From the NCBI RefSeq assembly GCF_044324875.1, contig NZ_CP172185.1: a DNA stretch of 64,000 bases; one strand, 5' to 3'. Below the pieces are notes generated by a model. That model saw nothing but the letters and a program-made list of their open reading frames with translations, ran no database searches and was not told the DNA's origin. The translations under genes were made by a program, and so were the position numbers. Shown in pieces: positions 14,279 to 53,575 of this stretch (within the stretch, counting starts at the first letter, position 1; every line of letters begins with the position of its first letter). The stretch is from Escherichia coli (GTDB lineage: Bacteria; Pseudomonadota; Gammaproteobacteria; Enterobacterales; Enterobacteriaceae).

Positions 14279-14315
14279 ATTTTCTCCCTGCATCCTGAAT
14301 ACTAAAGAGAGAGCA

Positions 14316-14351
14316 TAAAAAAAGCACGGTAAGGGGTCTACCGTGCTTTTA
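14316..14351. terminator. bidirectional rho-independent terminator between early operon (mor) and left-end accessory gene
   Basis: A-run, 9-bp stem AGCACGGTA / TACCGTGCT with 7-nt loop, T-run. Confidence 0.55.
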
Positions 14352-14392
14352 TACAATAAGGAGATTTTTGAAAGGACTTTAACAAGCAGGAA

Positions 14393-14791
14393 TTATCTGG
14401 ATTTGTTAACGTCTTTCGTCTCCTCTGGCAGATCTTCATCAAACAACCTGCCCTGCATCCGATCCAGTTCTTCTTTTCTGACCCGCTTAACCACGCTGTA
14501 GACCCACTGAAGCGAAACACCAAACTTGCGGGCCAGTTCGTGGTGGTTGCGTCCGTTAAACTCCCTGAAGATTTCCCGGTCGCGCTGACTGACCTTCCAT
14601 ACCATGCCCATCGGGAAATAAACGTTTTGCCCGCCCCAGACCTGCATCATTCGGTTCGCGACGGCCTGACCAATCTGGTCGGCAATTGCGGGCTCAATAT
14701 CAATAATCTCGCGAACGGTCTCAGAGGTATGCTGTGCCAGCTCCACCAGGAGTTCCGGCCCTTTACTTCGAAACTGATTCAGGTCGCTCAT
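14393..14791 (-). CDS. mor: Mor-family middle/late transcription activator
   Basis: 132-aa ORF with the C-terminal segment FREFNGRNHHELARKFGVSLQWVYSVVKRVRK matching Mu Mor. Confidence 0.8.
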   Translation of the reverse strand: MSDLNQFRSKGPELLVELAQHTSETVREIIDIEPAIADQIGQAVANRMMQVWGGQNVYFPMGMVWKVSQRDREIFREFNGRNHHELARKFGVSLQWVYSVVKRVRKEELDRMQGRLFDEDLPEETKDVNKSR

Positions 14792-25656: not shown

Positions 25657-25725
25657 TCTGTATCTCCTTTGTGAGTGATCCAGCGTGTATTCTGCATACC
25701 CCGAACACGCCTCTCTCTTAACGCG

Positions 25726-25736
25726 CTTTAAAATCC
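25726..25736 (+). promoter_or_regulatory. late-promoter-like motif GCTTTAAAATC about 60 bp upstream of first late gene
   Basis: One of four related motifs at matching distances from late-operon starts. Confidence 0.35.
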
Positions 25737-25787
25737 TCCGCGCCACGCTTTTGCCATGCTGTCTCCACACAACAAGGAGACATTTTC

Positions 25788-26875: not shown

Positions 26876-27167
26876 CCTGCTAAAAAATCTGCCGTGGCGC
26901 AGTCTGCTGCTGGCAGTGCTCATAAATGCTTTTCTGATTGGACTTTATTACCTGGGCTACAAAAGTGCAAAATGGCATCTGAATCGATCGCAGTTTGGCA
27001 TTCGAATCGATCATGATTTGGCATCCATCTCCGATCACAGTTTGGCATCACAATCGATCACGATTTGGCATGCTTCCGATCATTGATTGGCATCCTGCCA
27101 GTCACTCCGGGAATTAACTCTTTTCACCACAGTCTCCATTGCCGTGTTTAAACCAGTGGAGACGTCA

Positions 27168-28733
27168 ATGTCCAGAAAGAGAAAATCCAGGAGCACTATG
27201 GAAACCTGTTTTAAGATCCTTCAGCTCAAGTTCGACAAGAAGCTGACTAACCGTTGTATCGGACTGACGTTACACATCAGCGCCTCAACCGTTTTTGAGG
27301 TTCTTGCCCGCTTCAAAGCCTCTTCTCTGTCATGGCCATTACCTGCTGATATATCCCATGACACGCTGGAGAAACTCATTTTTCCGCCCAAAGACACCTT
27401 TGCATCAGAGCTTGTAATGCCTGACATGTTGTACTTCGATACGGAAATGAGAAAACCAGGTGTGACGCGGCAACTGTTGTGGATGGAATACAAGGCACAG
27501 GCGGGTAACAAAGCGATGGGATACTCGCACTTCTGCCGTTGCTACCGGGAGTGGAAAAAAACGCGACGTCTCTCCATGCGCCAGGAGCATCGTGCCGGCG
27601 AAAAGCTTTTTATCGACTTCTGTGGTCCTACGGTTCCTGTTATTAATCCGGACACCGGTGAGATACGCCGCGTGGCAATCTTCGTGGCCGTAATGGGGGC
27701 GTCCAACTATACCTACGTTGAAGCGTGCGAAGGTCAGGACATGATGTCATGGTTAAATGCCCACAGCCGTTGCCTGACCTTCCTGGGCGGCGTACCGAAG
27801 CTGCTCATCCCCGATAACCTCAGAAGCGCAGTGAAAAAGGCCGATCGATATGAGCCTGTCATCAACGACAGTTATCAGGCACTGGCTGAGCACTATGGCA
27901 CGGTTATCATCCCGGCCCGACCACGCAAACCTAAAGATAAACCAAAAGCAGAAAACGGCGTCCTCATCGTTGAACGATGGCTTCTTGCCCGCATCCGTAA
28001 TGAAACCTTCCACACGCTCAGGGCGCTGAATGCGCGCCTTAGGGAGTTACTGACAGACATGAATAACCGGCCAATGAAGGGGTACGGCAATCAAACCCGT
28101 GCAGAACGCTTCCGCATACTGGATGCGCCAGCACTCTCTCCGCTGCCTCTGGCACCTTATGAATACACGGAATACAAAGCTGTGAAGGTTGGCCCTGACT
28201 ACCACGTTGAATATGCCCGTCACTGGTACTCCGTTCCACACGAACTGGTCGGTCAGCGTCTGTCACTGAAGGCGGGGCAGTCGGTGGTACAGCTCTGGCA
28301 CAAGGGGCAGTGTGTGGCGCAACATCCGCGCAGCACACATGAATATAAACACACAACCAATCCGCTTCACATGCCAGAGCGCCACCGGCAGCACGGGACA
28401 TGGACACCGGAACGCCTGATCGAGCAGGGAAAACGTACGGGCCCGTCCACAGGCCGGGTGGTTGAATCCATGCTGAAGGCAAAACCCCATCCGGAACTGG
28501 CTTATCGTGCAGTTCTGGGGCTGCTGGCACTTCAGAAAAAATACGGCCCGGAACGGCTGGAAAAGGCCTGTTACGTTGCCCTGCACTATAACGCCCCTGA
28601 CAGACGCTTTATCGACAATCTGCTGCGTCACCATCGGGAGAACCTGGAGCTTCCATTATCCCGCCAGGGCGAACAACATCCGGCATATGCTTCAGAGCAT
28701 GAAAACCTGCGTGGTCCGGGCTACTACCACTGA
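27168..28733 (+). CDS. istA: IS21-family transposase IstA
   Basis: N-terminal HTH plus DDE core (FIDFCGP ... IPDNLRS ... VERW); start uncertain (27087 TTG to 27198 ATG). Confidence 0.8.
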   Translation: MSRKRKSRSTMETCFKILQLKFDKKLTNRCIGLTLHISASTVFEVLARFKASSLSWPLPADISHDTLEKLIFPPKDTFASELVMPDMLYFDTEMRKPGVTRQLLWMEYKAQAGNKAMGYSHFCRCYREWKKTRRLSMRQEHRAGEKLFIDFCGPTVPVINPDTGEIRRVAIFVAVMGASNYTYVEACEGQDMMSWLNAHSRCLTFLGGVPKLLIPDNLRSAVKKADRYEPVINDSYQALAEHYGTVIIPARPRKPKDKPKAENGVLIVERWLLARIRNETFHTLRALNARLRELLTDMNNRPMKGYGNQTRAERFRILDAPALSPLPLAPYEYTEYKAVKVGPDYHVEYARHWYSVPHELVGQRLSLKAGQSVVQLWHKGQCVAQHPRSTHEYKHTTNPLHMPERHRQHGTWTPERLIEQGKRTGPSTGRVVESMLKAKPHPELAYRAVLGLLALQKKYGPERLEKACYVALHYNAPDRRFIDNLLRHHRENLELPLSRQGEQHPAYASEHENLRGPGYYH

Positions 28734-28749
28734 CAGAAGGAACAACAGT

Positions 28750-29505
28750 ATGAGTGATAACCTGTTAAACAAACTGACCCAACTGAAACTCCCGGCGATG
28801 GCCGGGAGCCTGATACGGCAGCGGGAAACGCCTCAGACCTACGACGAACTGTCGTTCGAGGAAAGGCTGACGCTGCTGGTTGATGACGAGCTTCTGAGCA
28901 GGGAAAACAGCCGTGTGGCACGGTTGAGAAAAAATGCCGGCCTGAAATACCAGGCAACACCGGAAGGGCTGCGCTATCCGGCCTCAAGAGGTCTGCGGGC
29001 TGAACAGATGAGAGAACTGCTGAACGGCCACTACATAACCCACAGGAAAAACCTGCTGATAACCGGTCCGACAGGATGTGGCAAGAGCTGGATAGCCAAT
29101 GCGCTGGGCGAACAGGCATGTCGACAGAAACACAGCGTCCGGTACTGTAGAACCGGGCGATTACTGGAACAACTGGCTCAGGGACGTGTTGATGGCAGCT
29201 GGCTGAAATATCTGAAACAGTTGCAAAAAATACAGGTTCTAATCCTGGACGATCTGGGGCTGGAACAGTTAAGTAACGCCCAGTGTAATGACCTTCTGGA
29301 GCTCATAGAGGATCGTTACGGACAAAGCAGCACGATAGTGGTAAGCCAGTTCCCGGTAGATAAATGGCATGGTCTGATGGAGAACCCAACAACAGCAGAT
29401 GCCATCCTGGACAGACTGGTACATAACTCACACCGAGTGGTCCTTCAGGGAGAGTCACTGAGGAAAAATCCCCCGGTAGTGGAAAGCAGCGAAAAAACGC
29501 GTTAA
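28750..29505 (+). CDS. istB: IS21-family helper ATPase IstB
   Basis: 251-aa ORF with Walker A GPTGCGKSWIA; ATG at 28750 a few bp after istA stop. Confidence 0.85.
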   Translation: MSDNLLNKLTQLKLPAMAGSLIRQRETPQTYDELSFEERLTLLVDDELLSRENSRVARLRKNAGLKYQATPEGLRYPASRGLRAEQMRELLNGHYITHRKNLLITGPTGCGKSWIANALGEQACRQKHSVRYCRTGRLLEQLAQGRVDGSWLKYLKQLQKIQVLILDDLGLEQLSNAQCNDLLELIEDRYGQSSTIVVSQFPVDKWHGLMENPTTADAILDRLVHNSHRVVLQGESLRKNPPVVESSEKTR

Positions 29506-29856
29506 AAAGCGGTAGAAAAAGTTAAGTTCCCGGTTGATCGAATGGATGCGAATCGCTGATCGGACTTCGATGCCAATCCGTGATCGAATAGAGCGGAATA
29601 CGCAAAAGCGGGCATGAAAACGCCACGCGCGACGGCGATAAGGCGATCAGTGAGTTGCAGTCAGCATTCGACACATACAAAACGGAGCAGGCAATGCTTG
29701 AGAACGCTGCATTGCGAGCATGGGCAAAACGGTATCAGGAGCAGGTGGCCGCTGGGCAGCAGGCTGAGGCCGGTTATCTTGAGCAGATTGCTCAACTGGA
29801 GAGTCAGAACAAACAACTACAGGGGCAAATTAACGATGTCACACAGCGCTGGATTG

Positions 29857-35160: not shown

Positions 35161-35619
35161 ATGGCTTCCGATAACCTGGTCAGTGTCACCATTAATGATA
35201 AATCCCTGCGCCGGAGCCTCCGTGCGCTGGATCTGGCTGCCACAGACATGGAGCCTGCGATGCGCAAAATCGCCGGAACCCTGCTGGCGGAAACACAGTT
35301 TAACTTTCTTGATGAGGGGCGTCCGGGGTGGATGCCCTCGCTGGCAGCGGAAGAACGTAACGGACAGACACTGCAGGATACCGGGCGTCTGATGGGGTCA
35401 GTATCAACCGAGCATGACGACCGGCAGGCTGTTGTGGGGACCAACGTTGTTTACGGTGCCATTCACCAGTTCGGGGGTAAAACGGGGCGTAATGAGTCTG
35501 TTGAACTTCCGGCCCGCCCGTTCCTGCCGGTGACGGAGGATGGAGAGCTACAGCCTGAAGTGGTAGTCCCCATCCTCGATACCATTGTCCGCCATCTTGA
35601 AGCAGCGGCCCGTCGCTGA
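35161..35619 (+). CDS. virion morphogenesis protein (Mu G-like)
   Basis: 152-aa ORF; position and size. Confidence 0.55.
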   Translation: MASDNLVSVTINDKSLRRSLRALDLAATDMEPAMRKIAGTLLAETQFNFLDEGRPGWMPSLAAEERNGQTLQDTGRLMGSVSTEHDDRQAVVGTNVVYGAIHQFGGKTGRNESVELPARPFLPVTEDGELQPEVVVPILDTIVRHLEAAARR

Positions 35620-35769
35620 GTTTTCTCTCTTCAGGCGGGTGATTTATCATTGCCAGCGAATGAGGGGCTGTATTACCTTTATAAAGGCTTTACAGCCTCT
35701 GTTTTATAACTGCCTCCGGTTCACCACATTGCTTTCCCTGTCCTTCTCCCCTGATGTTTTCTAAAGCAG

Positions 35770-35781
35770 ATTAAAATCGCC
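35770..35781 (+). promoter_or_regulatory. late-promoter-like motif GATTAAAATCGCC upstream of protease/scaffold gene
   Basis: Second instance of the shared motif, about 60 bp upstream of ATG 35834 in a 214-bp noncoding gap. Confidence 0.35.
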
Positions 35782-35833
35782 GGGCCCGCATTTCTCACAA
35801 ACTGTCTCCGACAACATAACGCGGGACAGCAAA

Positions 35834-36949
35834 ATGTCAGCCATTCACATTTTTAAAGCCGGTACTCATACCGATATGCACGGCAAAAAACTGCCGTTCA
35901 CGCCAGACGATCTTGCCGCCTGCGTGAAAGCCTATGACCCGTCCGTCCATGAAGCACCACTCGTGATTGGTCATCCCAGAACGGAAGACCCGGCGTGGGG
36001 CTGGGTGAAAGCCCTGTCGCTCAGCGGCGTCGATCTGATGGCAGAGCCTGCCCAGCTGGACCCGCAGTTTGCTGAGATGGTCACCGACGGACGATTCAAA
36101 AAAGTGTCTGCCTCTTTCTACCTCCCGGATTCACCGTCCAATCCGAAGCCCGGCGTGCTCTACCTGCGCCATGTGGGCTTTCTTGGGGCACAGCCACCTT
36201 CCGTCAAAGGACTGAAACAGGTGTCCTTCAGTGAGCAGGAAGAAGGTGTGGTGGAGTTCGCCGACTGGCAGGCCATCACGAATGCCTCACTGTGGGGAAA
36301 GCTGCGCGATTTTCTGATCGCCCGCTTCAGTCTGGACGAAGCAGAAAAAGTTCTGCCGGAATGGCAGCTCAACAGTCTGCGCGAAGAGGCGTACCGCGAC
36401 ACACCGTCGCAGGATGCAGCAGGTGCGCAATTCAGTGAGACAGGCCAGGTGCCGTCTTCCGCAAGTAACGAGGAATCATCGATGACAAAAGAAGAGATTG
36501 AAGCCCTTCAGGCGGAGAACCGCCGCCTGAAGCAGCAGGCTGCTGATCGCGATGCGCGTGATGCACAGGTCAGACAGGAGCAACTGCATAAGGACAATGT
36601 GGCCTTTGCAGAAAAACTGGTCGCAGAGGGCCGTCTGGCTCCCCGCGCCTCCTCCGTGGTGGTTGCCCTGCTGGATTCCGTCGCCGGTGGCGACAAGCCG
36701 GTGGAGTTTGCTGAGGGGGAAAGCCGCACACCGCTGGCCACCGCCTTCCGTTCGCTGCTCTCCGACGGGGAGCCGGTGATGAACTTCGCCGAACAGGCCA
36801 CGAAGGAGCGTGTCGGCGACACGGTGAAAGTGGATGTGACGGAGTTTGCAGAAGCCGACCCTGACCGTCTGGCACTGCACCAGAAGGCTGTGGAACTGTC
36901 GAAAAAAGAAGGCATCAGCTATGAGGCTGCTGTCACACGCTGCCTGTAA
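35834..36949 (+). CDS. head protease/scaffold protein (Mu I-like)
   Basis: 371-aa ORF with acidic coiled-coil C-terminus, directly before major capsid gene. Confidence 0.6.
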   Translation: MSAIHIFKAGTHTDMHGKKLPFTPDDLAACVKAYDPSVHEAPLVIGHPRTEDPAWGWVKALSLSGVDLMAEPAQLDPQFAEMVTDGRFKKVSASFYLPDSPSNPKPGVLYLRHVGFLGAQPPSVKGLKQVSFSEQEEGVVEFADWQAITNASLWGKLRDFLIARFSLDEAEKVLPEWQLNSLREEAYRDTPSQDAAGAQFSETGQVPSSASNEESSMTKEEIEALQAENRRLKQQAADRDARDAQVRQEQLHKDNVAFAEKLVAEGRLAPRASSVVVALLDSVAGGDKPVEFAEGESRTPLATAFRSLLSDGEPVMNFAEQATKERVGDTVKVDVTEFAEADPDRLALHQKAVELSKKEGISYEAAVTRCL

Positions 36950-48016: not shown

Positions 48017-48028
48017 GCTTCTTAAACG

Positions 48029-48040
48029 CCTTTAATATCA
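48029..48040 (+). promoter_or_regulatory. late-promoter-like motif CCTTTAATATCA upstream of baseplate genes
   Basis: Shared 11-mer; followed by hairpin GGGGGCA-ATAC-TGCCCCC at 48053-48070 abutting the ATG. Confidence 0.4.
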
Positions 48041-48070
48041 GCGTTCCCGCACGGGGGCAATACTGCCCCC

Positions 48071-48418
48071 ATGAAAACGACCTCAGTATTCTGGCAACCA
48101 GCCCTGCAGGCTCCCGGCGAAATTGTCCGGGGGCTGGATGATATCCGGCAGGCGATTCAAATTATCCTGCGGACTCCCCGCGGCAGCGACCCGCATCGCC
48201 CGGAGTTCGGCAGCAATCTGCATCTTTATATCGACTGGCCTGTAGACCGGGCCATTCCGCATGTGGTGCGCGAATCCGTCGATGCCATCCGGCGCTGGGA
48301 GCCCCGCTGCCAGCTTATGTCAGTTAAACCCGCCGTCGACGGCGAACATCTTACGCTCCGGGTGAGCTGGAAAGGCTCAGACGGACAGACCCGGACTCAG
48401 GAGCTGCTATGGCGCTGA
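48071..48418 (+). CDS. baseplate protein (gpW / gp25-like)
   Basis: 115-aa ORF; size and order. Confidence 0.6.
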   Translation: MKTTSVFWQPALQAPGEIVRGLDDIRQAIQIILRTPRGSDPHRPEFGSNLHLYIDWPVDRAIPHVVRESVDAIRRWEPRCQLMSVKPAVDGEHLTLRVSWKGSDGQTRTQELLWR

Positions 48419-53002: not shown

Positions 53003-53575
53003 ATGCTGATTGGCTACATACGTGTGTCAACAAATGACCAAAACACAGATTTGCAACGCAATGCATTAATGTGCGCAGGATGTGAACAGATTTTTGAGGA
53101 CAAAATGAGCGGAACCAAGTCGGAACGACCAGGCCTGAAACGCGCTTTAAAGTGCCTTAAAAGAGGGGATACATTGGTGGTCTGGAAGCTGGATCGGTTG
53201 GGTAGAAGAATGAAACACCTCATTGCTCTCACAGAAGAGCTACGCGCAAAAGGTGTCAATTTTCGCAGTCTGACGGATTCAATCGATACCAGCACTCCGA
53301 TGGGAAGGTTCTTTTTTCATATGATGGGTGCACTGGCAGAAATGGAGCGTGAACTGATAGTTGAGCGCACGCTGGCAGGACTGGCTGCTGCGCGAGCACA
53401 AGGGAGAGTTGGAGGACGTCGCCCGAAACTGACGAAGGAGCAGCATGAGCAGATCGCAAGATTGCTCCAGAAAGGGTATGACAGAAAGCGGCTGGCAATT
53501 ATCTATGATATTGGACTGTCAACGATCTACCGCTATCACCCTGTTGGGACTGTCATAACGGAACCTGAAATGTAA
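53003..53575 (+). CDS. gin: Gin/Hin/Cin-family serine DNA invertase
   Basis: MLIGYIRVSTNDQNTDLQRNAL... closely matches Mu Gin; ATG at 53003 with AAAGGGAG SD. Confidence 0.9.
   Translation: MLIGYIRVSTNDQNTDLQRNALMCAGCEQIFEDKMSGTKSERPGLKRALKCLKRGDTLVVWKLDRLGRRMKHLIALTEELRAKGVNFRSLTDSIDTSTPMGRFFFHMMGALAEMERELIVERTLAGLAAARAQGRVGGRRPKLTKEQHEQIARLLQKGYDRKRLAIIYDIGLSTIYRYHPVGTVITEPEM

Follow-up and report, generated by a model that had tools for sequence, protein, structure and literature searches.

The ORF-free gap between the G-like and I-like head genes of a BcepMu-like Escherichia coli prophage as a probable Mu-type control region

We identified the 214-bp gap between the G-like and I-like head genes (35620-35833) of a Mu-like prophage in Escherichia coli as a probable cis-acting control region (probability about 0.7), located in the middle of the prophage and representing the positional counterpart of the G-I region of phage Mu. 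The prophage is a BcepMu-like (Bcepmuvirus) transposable element lying within the 64,000-nucleotide stretch of DNA analyzed here, hereafter the window. In Mu, the annotation of the 196-bp G-I gap (GenBank AF083977) places a gyrase cut site at 20 bp from the end of G and lists a terminator and the late promoter P_I. The original prediction had seen only a weak hairpin and a promoter-like motif in the gap of the window and had considered neither a strong gyrase site (SGS) nor homology to P_I. Instead, the gap has a conserved length and 3 elements, namely a central palindrome (motif 1), the activator box of a late promoter (motif 2), and an inverted repeat before the start codon, all of which are kept across gamma- and betaproteobacterial relatives down to approximately 45-50% identity of the I protein.

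The window has its match in the E. coli AR_0085 chromosome, with 100% identity for a 1-kb query around the gap, and its head genes follow the order portal (PF06074), F (PF04233), G (PF05069), gap, I-like gene, capsid gene, and cement protein. The upstream border is formed by the G-like virion morphogenesis gene (35161-35619, plus strand; PF05069, E 5e-23; also RefSeq), which corresponds to Mup31/G in phage PhiKM. The downstream border is formed by the I-like protease/scaffold gene (35834-36949, plus strand; 371 aa), the "Mu I equivalent" of BcepMu, whose 3750 homologues carry the database names of a peptidase or a GPO-family scaffolding protein. The ORF-free interval had been delimited exactly, with the G-like ORF stopping at 35619 and the I-like ORF starting at 35834. 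PhiKM is 98.4% identical over the G-I junction, the G-I gap of the S. Typhi CT18 prophage is 98% identical to that of the window, and a second gap allele, approximately 88% identical, was found in Klebsiella phage KP12, Phi06_2974 B, and some E. coli. The prophage family is a common one: the junction was identified in 637 of 5426 complete E. coli genomes, including an O25b:H4-ST131 strain, and it was in one piece in 629 of these.

The Mu-like prophage itself sits within a P2-like prophage, between lysB/lysC and the tail genes R/S, with lysB annotated as a pseudogene. Its approximate ends lie at ~13,270 and ~53,660 of the window (946 and 38,560 of the AR_0085 locus, L001), where the repeated words GAGATAAAT and GCGATAAAT are likely transposase-binding sites. 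An IS21-family element at ~26,900-29,600 (ORFs 27087-28733 and 28507-29505) lies in the lysis region directly after the SLT transglycosylase gene and encodes an IstA-like transposase, with rve and Mu-transposase C-terminal domains, and an IstB ATPase. The AR_0085 prophage is without this element, as seen from a jump of 2646 bp in the coordinate offset, and otherwise the 2 prophages match. The insertion probably breaks a lysis or spanin-region gene, and it shifts the G-I gap from ~52% to ~55% of the prophage length.

To compare the junction among relatives, 25 I-like proteins were aligned, and the alignment was used to collect 80 loci from different species, 66 of which had a G homologue upstream of I. 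The distance from G to I was ~190-260 bp in most relatives, spanning Enterobacterales, Pseudomonas, Burkholderia, Rhodocyclales, and some delta-proteobacterial MAGs. Between clades, the gap sequence was mostly unrelated, with motif 1, motif 2, and the inverted repeat before the start codon persisting. A variable, pyrimidine-rich spacer (35698-35754) separates motif 1 from motif 2; it is poorly conserved, shows 1-bp indels between the 2 E. coli alleles, and is the slot used for cargo in relatives. A short terminator-like hairpin with a T-run (CAGCG/CGCTG, 35603-35629, plus strand) was found at the end of G by a pattern scan; it is weak, folds no better than shuffles (z 0.09), and was not relied on.

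Two readings of the gap as a whole were weighed against a control region, the first being that a small protein or small RNA encoded there has been missed. No gene is annotated in the gap in RefSeq for the 100%-identical copy of E. coli AR_0085, and the longest ORF within the gap is a 41-aa GTG frame (35639-35764), which is without a ribosome-binding site and of a length expected in shuffled sequences (p 0.32). Among 55 related gaps, there was no excess of ORF length over chance (mean longest ORF of 35.1 aa vs. 37.9 aa in shuffles) and no conserved ORF strand or frame, and a search for a small conserved ORF with a ribosome-binding site, the one finding that was to overturn the original prediction, returned none. 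Further, the gap lengths of close relatives differ by non-multiples of 3 (214/215/205/211 and 203/201/204), and an Rfam scan of the gap and its flanks gave chance-level matches only. With ORFs no longer than chance, no shared frame, and no Rfam match, the negative observation is confirmed. A missed gene product would find some support in the 41- to 42-aa ORFs annotated in the G-I gaps of KP12 (L002 3540-3665) and D108 (gene 31.5, L090 66-194), the former, a "hypothetical" ORF, being the same frame as the 41-aa GTG frame of the window, as well as in the fact that this frame is open in both E. coli alleles and in a minus-strand sigma-70-like site at 35840-35813. However, 1-bp indels between the 2 alleles break and then restore the reading of the frame and scramble its second half, whereas its first (N-terminal) half has zero substitutions and hence no synonymous change, and the frame is missing in Photorhabdus, Pseudomonas, and Burkholderia. 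The small-ORF reading was ruled out by the shuffles, the frame breaks, and the missing conservation, and we consider a missed small protein or RNA hardly credible. Given these ORF tests and the annotated gyrase site, terminator, and promoter of Mu, the ORFs of KP12 and D108 are most likely over-annotations.

The other reading takes the gap as an empty cargo site, composed of leftover spacer, a promoter-like word, and a chance hairpin, whose only significance lies in the insertions of other phages. The view that this junction is a known cargo hotspot in Pseudomonas Mu-like phages agrees with the literature, where anti-CRISPR operons lie between 2 conserved head genes, upstream of the protease-scaffold gene (PMC3993853; RGP G in PMC4378225). 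The comparison of the junction in relatives, as had been suggested, revealed insertions in 11 of the 66 loci with G upstream, where the gaps extend to 0.45-2.3 kb, and the hotspot idea therefore holds within the BcepMu-like family too. The cargo types included an HNH endonuclease, a RES-domain protein with a HEPN/RES N-terminal domain, an EEP-nuclease-like protein, Bro-N, DUF2513, and several unknowns, and most of the cargo lies between motif 1 and motif 2 (L025, L038, L041, L047, and L060). No anti-CRISPR was recognized among the cargo of the relatives. As in the Pseudomonas D3112/JBD-type phages, BcepMu-like relatives use the same junction to carry variable, often low-GC, defence-like genes, whereas the phage in the window is without an insertion, in line with the earlier claim that it holds no cargo at this site: there is no ORF beyond chance, and the junction is intact in nearly all E. 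coli genomes that carry it. This absence, the cargo of the relatives, and the poor conservation of the middle of the gap (35698-35754) fit an empty site. In contrast, the gap length and the 3 elements are kept to ~45% I-protein identity, 38 of 39 sequences share the spacing of box and -10 described below, the palindrome is unique and near-invariant, and the equivalent gap of Mu has 3 annotated functions; a mere empty site is accordingly very improbable.

Within the control region, the layout of 35760-35811 very probably marks a late promoter that depends on a Mor-family protein and corresponds to Mu P_I. Our assignment of this interval follows from the binding of Mor and C to an imperfect dyad located immediately upstream of a poor -35 (bioRxiv 10.1101/2025.05.02.651988; PMC4461284); the P_I promoter of Mu depends on C (Margolin et al. 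1989, PMID 2522923, as cited in AF083977; PMC4461284). Motif 2, the activator box TCTAAAGCAGATTAAAAT (35760-35777, plus strand), is kept in nearly all relatives and is the predicted Mor-family binding site. In the window, it reads CTAA (35761-35764), N6, and TTAA (35771-35774), with yTAAA-N5-TTAAAA as the family form, and its center lies at -42.5 from the predicted start, upstream of a non-consensus -35 and at the position of the Mu C boxes. The -10 hexamer CAAACT (35798-35803, plus strand) follows the box by 23 nt and is identical to the -10 of Mu P_I, and transcription of the head (I) operon is predicted to start at the 7th-8th nt after it (35810-35811, plus strand). Of 39 distinct sequences, 38 have a hexamer NANNNT at a distance of exactly 23 nt downstream of the second TTAA; no other offset has it in more than 5 of the 39, except offset 25 (14/39). 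The -10 variants of the relatives include CAGACT, GAAACT, CAGGCT, GATCAT, and TATGAT. An alternative assignment of TAAAAT within motif 2 as the -10, leaving a 50-nt leader, was rejected, with the fixed element being the hexamer 23 nt downstream (38/39 sequences), as in the geometry of Mu.

The late-promoter-like motif reported for the gap is real, and it recurs elsewhere, with 8 matches to the motif 2 box in the window vs. 0.8 expected. Sister late promoters were identified upstream of the holin gene (25717-25787, plus strand; box 25717-25733, -10 CATGCT at 25755-25760, inverted repeat TGTCTCC/GGAGACA) and in the V-W baseplate gap (48021-48070, plus strand; box 48021-48037, -10 AATACT at 48059-48064, inverted repeat GGGGGCA/TGCCCCC abutting the ATG). 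BcepMu repeats this box, spacing, and hexamer ahead of holin, I, and W, so that copies of the late promoter head several late operons (lysis, head, and tail/baseplate) in both the window and BcepMu. The presumed trans factor is encoded by the Mor-family activator gene (14393-14791, minus strand; 132-aa ORF), annotated in RefSeq as "Mor transcription activator family protein" (WP_001281696.1) in the identical AR_0085 prophage (L001 2068-2466). No other Mor/C-family gene is annotated in the prophage, and gp01 is the Mor/C-family activator of BcepMu. A motif-2-like box lies directly downstream of this gene (14366-14382, minus strand). In the same stretch (14300-14392, minus strand), 23 nt separate the box from the downstream hexamer CACGGT, which is part of the 5' arm of a strong terminator (GCACGGTA..TACCGTGC followed by T7), and RNA started from this putative promoter would be without the 5' arm of the terminator; the layout recalls the Mu middle promoter Pm, which overlaps the terminator after mor. 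Another palindromic motif-2-like word, TTTAAAGTGCCTTAAAA (53146-53162), lies within a Gin-like recombinase gene and probably arose by chance.

The likeness to Mu P_I comprises the location directly upstream of gene I in the G-I gap, a box before a poor -35, the 23-nt spacing, the -10 CAAACT, and an inverted repeat between the -10 and the Shine-Dalgarno sequence. The 4 annotated late promoters of Mu (Plys, PI, PP, and Pmom; AF083977) are also built of a C box, 23 nt, and a -10, with sister promoters for lysis and tail/baseplate genes as in the window. The systems differ in the box, which is of the TTAA-N6-TTAA type in the window vs. ..ATAACCCC.. / TTAT-N6-ATAA in Mu, and in the single Mor-family gene here vs. 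the 2-step Mor-then-C cascade of Mu. Further, the I-like protein here is of the GPO/peptidase type, without a Pfam match to Mu I.

The promoter is combined with an inverted repeat, CTGTCTC (35802-35808) and GGGACAG (35823-35829), spanning 35802-35829 on the plus strand (z -4.5), with its 5' arm on the -10 and discriminator and its 3' arm over the GGGA Shine-Dalgarno region. Across 36 non-redundant loci, the mean z was -2.55, with 21 loci individually significant against shuffles, and the arms covary, with 28 distinct 5' arms for which pairing is kept. RNAalifold on a MAFFT alignment of the hairpin region identified no structure because the arms are misaligned between clades, and per-sequence stem tests were used instead. 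Analogous inverted repeats were identified at the holin and W promoters of the window, in BcepMu, and at Mu P_I. In the enteric and Pseudomonas clades, the 5' arm starts within the -10 and extends over the discriminator, upstream of the predicted start, and the 3' arm lies over the Shine-Dalgarno region. At loci of the Burkholderia type, the -10 lies between the arms and the stem adjoins the ATG, so RNA started at the promoter would be leaderless.

With its 5' arm on the -10 and discriminator, the hairpin would form only in read-through RNA and not in promoter-started RNA, a trait common to the layouts of the different clades, and we hypothesize that it serves the selective translation of promoter-started RNA. 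Davis, Simons, and Kleckner reportedly described in 1985 a fold-back inhibition of read-through transcripts in IS10/Tn10. The layout is alike in having a promoter inside the 5' arm and a 3' arm over the translation start region, such that only externally started RNA folds; it differs in being a functional analogy only, one that misfits some promoters of the BcepMu-like family. At the BcepMu holin promoter, for instance, the -10 lies between the arms and the repeat does not reach the Shine-Dalgarno sequence, a layout that the hairpin model does not fit. At the promoter of W (gp25-like; 48059-48073), the predicted start, 7 nt after the -10, coincides with the first nucleotide of the ATG, and the stem leaves no Shine-Dalgarno sequence outside it; this suggests that the W mRNA of the window is leaderless, as those of W and I in BcepMu would likewise be (L089 30800-30826 and 18849-18864). 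The annotation of BcepMu gp32 may be 12 nt too long.

Motif 1 is a 38-bp imperfect palindrome (35663-35700) with the 10-bp units CTGTATTAC, CTTTATAAAG, and GCTTTACAG (35668-35695). Its general form is the perfect palindrome CTTTATAAAG with 10-bp units CTGTAAAS or STTTACAG on one or both sides, and CTTTATAAAG was present with 0-1 mismatch in ~45 loci of Enterobacterales, Pseudomonas, Burkholderia, and Neisseriales relatives. It is the sole TTTATAAA and the sole cluster of at least 3 half-sites in the 64 kb, and TTTATAAA is unique in the BcepMu genome too. Measured along the genome, the site lies at 50.7-51.3% in BcepMu and at ~52% in the AR_0085 prophage, with the Mu SGS at 48.7%. The AGGCT-TTAC-AGCCT hairpin that had been called weak is the tip of this palindrome; with a folding energy of -20 kcal/mol for the palindrome as RNA (z -3.9) and GUUUUAU behind it, it is not weak. 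In Burkholderia, the fold reaches -17.3 kcal/mol and is followed by UUUGGUU; in Photorhabdus, where the sequence is kept, it is missing (0 kcal/mol), and in Pseudomonas, only a 4-bp stem is left. A fold that is strong here and absent in Photorhabdus indicates that the sequence is conserved and not the structure. Motif 1 stays beside G where relatives carry cargo in the gap and is therefore not an upstream part of the promoter. As a sigma-70 promoter in its own right, TTTACA-N17-TCTAAT fits Photorhabdus alone and fails in E. coli, as judged by eye.

Upstream of motif 1, we identified a core-like element, GGCGGGTGATTTATCATTGCC (35634-35654), a candidate gyrase cleavage core that does not vary among the E. 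coli, Klebsiella, and Pantoea copies and hardly varies in Photorhabdus and Xenorhabdus; the word reads GGGTGATTTATC in enterics and CGGTTCATC in Pseudomonas. It precedes the palindrome by 29-30, 38-39, or 47 nt, with unrelated sequence between, and the steps in distance correspond to whole extra 9- to 10-bp units. Phased 10-bp CTTTAY/RTAAAG units begin ~27-30 bp after the core-like element, where the cleavage center is only guessed. The element lies 17 bp after the G stop, with the Mu cut site 20 bp after G. It matches the reverse complement of the Mu cut site GC|GGCT|GATTTTAT at 10 of 11 positions, and the Mu SGS fragment given in the PMC6379681 supplement at 11 of 11, a similarity that is not significant by itself. 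That "Mu SGS" fragment reads GCGGGTGAT at the cut site (AF083977 17879-17884), whereas the cut site reads GCGGCTGAT in Mu, D108, and SfMu and GTGGCTGAT in Yersinia Muvirus. The GGGT version of the listed fragment is also that of the core-like element of the window, and the GGGT/GGCT difference could originate from a nuB-type allele or an error. The G-I gaps of the distant relatives L039, L061, L066, L070, and L076 are without CTTTATAAAG, show TTTAACG-N4-TTTAACG pairs similar to the right arm of the Mu SGS (TTTTTAAACCGGTATTTAACGG) in its place, and break the 23-nt promoter rule.

We tentatively read motif 1, by analogy and at somewhat less than even odds, as the analogue of the Mu strong gyrase site. 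The reference is the central SGS of Mu (Pato, Howe and Higgins 1990; Oram and Pato 2004; PMC10052514, PMC3820752, PMC6463007), and its essential right arm consists of phased bending signals from +26 toward I (PMC6463007). Both sites lie ~17-20 bp after the G stop in the G-I gap, mid-genome and in one copy per genome, and they share the short core similarity GC|GG(C/G)T|GATTT. The core of the Mu site, its I-proximal arm of ~10-bp-phased AT patches from about +26, and its overlap with a terminator may be mirrored in the window by the candidate core, the phased units, and the possible terminator stem. They differ in that the core similarity of the window is on the opposite strand and not statistically significant, and in that the arm here is a near-invariant palindrome vs. 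the degenerate T(n)A(n) tracts of Mu. The BcepMu-type transposase is Tn552-like and not MuA-like, and a need for an SGS in these phages is thus not established. Oram and Pato are said to have tested Mu-like prophage fragments in 2004, S. Typhi CT18 included. Local alignment of the Mu gap against the gap of the window was not significant (p 0.04 and 0.28). A W/S scan, a crude surrogate built from the published 133-bp gyrase consensus, gave z 2.6 and rank 267 of 64,000 near 35642; since the Mu SGS control itself reached only z 3.2 and rank 28, the scores of the window gap and its relatives are uninformative. It also counts against the gyrase reading that only the E. coli Sakai prophage site could replace the Mu SGS (PMC10052514).

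The near-invariance of CTTTATAAAG across beta- and gammaproteobacteria is stricter than the degenerate, shape-based recognition by gyrase and better fits a sequence-specific protein. Motif 1 could then be the site of a DNA-binding or -bending protein, either a host protein (IHF-/HU-like) or one encoded by the phage, acting for example as an architectural element, an operon boundary, or a regulator of inserted cargo, which we regard as possible but rather doubtful. The IHF consensus is WATCAANNNNTTR, and one motif 1 unit with half of the center loosely agrees with it, at 7 of 9 positions by eye. The palindromic layout with alternating CTTTAY half-sites on both sides, the retention of the sequence where the RNA fold is lost, the HU-like protein gp04 of BcepMu, and the plus-strand cargo ORFs that begin 35-65 nt downstream of motif 1 (L025, L038, L041, and L043) all point the same way. 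Yet no candidate protein was identified, the annotation of the E. coli prophage contains no HU-like gene although motif 1 is kept there, a regulator would not usually have just 1 site per genome, and the fixed relation to the upstream core-like element suggests a complex beyond one dimer site. A plain intrinsic terminator of the upstream late operon, conserved for that role, is improbable. The stable stems and U-rich tails in the window and Burkholderia suit it, as does the predicted terminator of Mu at the equivalent place (AF083977), but the stem is lost in Photorhabdus and reduced to 4 bp in Pseudomonas, the substitutions in motif 1 are non-compensatory with the sequence itself fixed, and many relatives have a separate GC-rich hairpin upstream of motif 1.

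Under the reading of the gap as a control region with a gyrase-type site, the portal-F-G transcription unit would end in the gap, where the 38-bp palindrome and its U-run could act as a terminator in this phage. The core-like element (35634-35654) and the phased motif 1 (35663-35700) would form a unique, promoter-independent site; gyrase would wrap the phased arm and hold the midpoint of the prophage at the tip of a supercoiled loop, helping the ends to meet for transposition. The variable spacer would tolerate insertions, allowing relatives to acquire cargo genes there. A Mor-family dimer or tetramer on the box, upstream of the missing -35, would recruit sigma-70 RNA polymerase to CAAACT, and transcription of the head operon would begin near 35810. 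Read-through RNA alone would fold the hairpin over the Shine-Dalgarno region, which promoter-started RNA could not do.

A broader, joint reading, which we consider unlikely, is that BcepMu-like phages share a family-wide midpoint "center site" together with late promoters built inside hairpins. The former may consist of the 30-bp palindrome CTGTAAAS-CTTTATAAAG-STTTACAG at a fixed distance from the core element and may bind gyrase with unusual sequence specificity, or a bending protein, and so pin the apex of the supercoiled prophage loop. As for the hairpin promoters, it may be that only promoter-started mRNAs escape the fold and are translated, some of them leaderless (W in the window; I and W in BcepMu). 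Taken for itself, the gap is probably an ordinary, well-built Mu-type control region whose strongly conserved central palindrome stands out as its one unexplained part.

The absence of ORFs from a gap that is a known cargo hotspot does not make it a vacancy, and the tempting reading of it as such is corrected here. The 3 Mor-type promoters with their fixed geometry provide a testable late-control map for the BcepMu-like family. The interval from the central element to the promoter gives the exact slot for accessory and defence-like genes, which helps cargo mining in Mu-like prophages. If the central palindrome is a gyrase or bending site, the SGS principle would extend beyond Mu to phages with an unrelated transposase.
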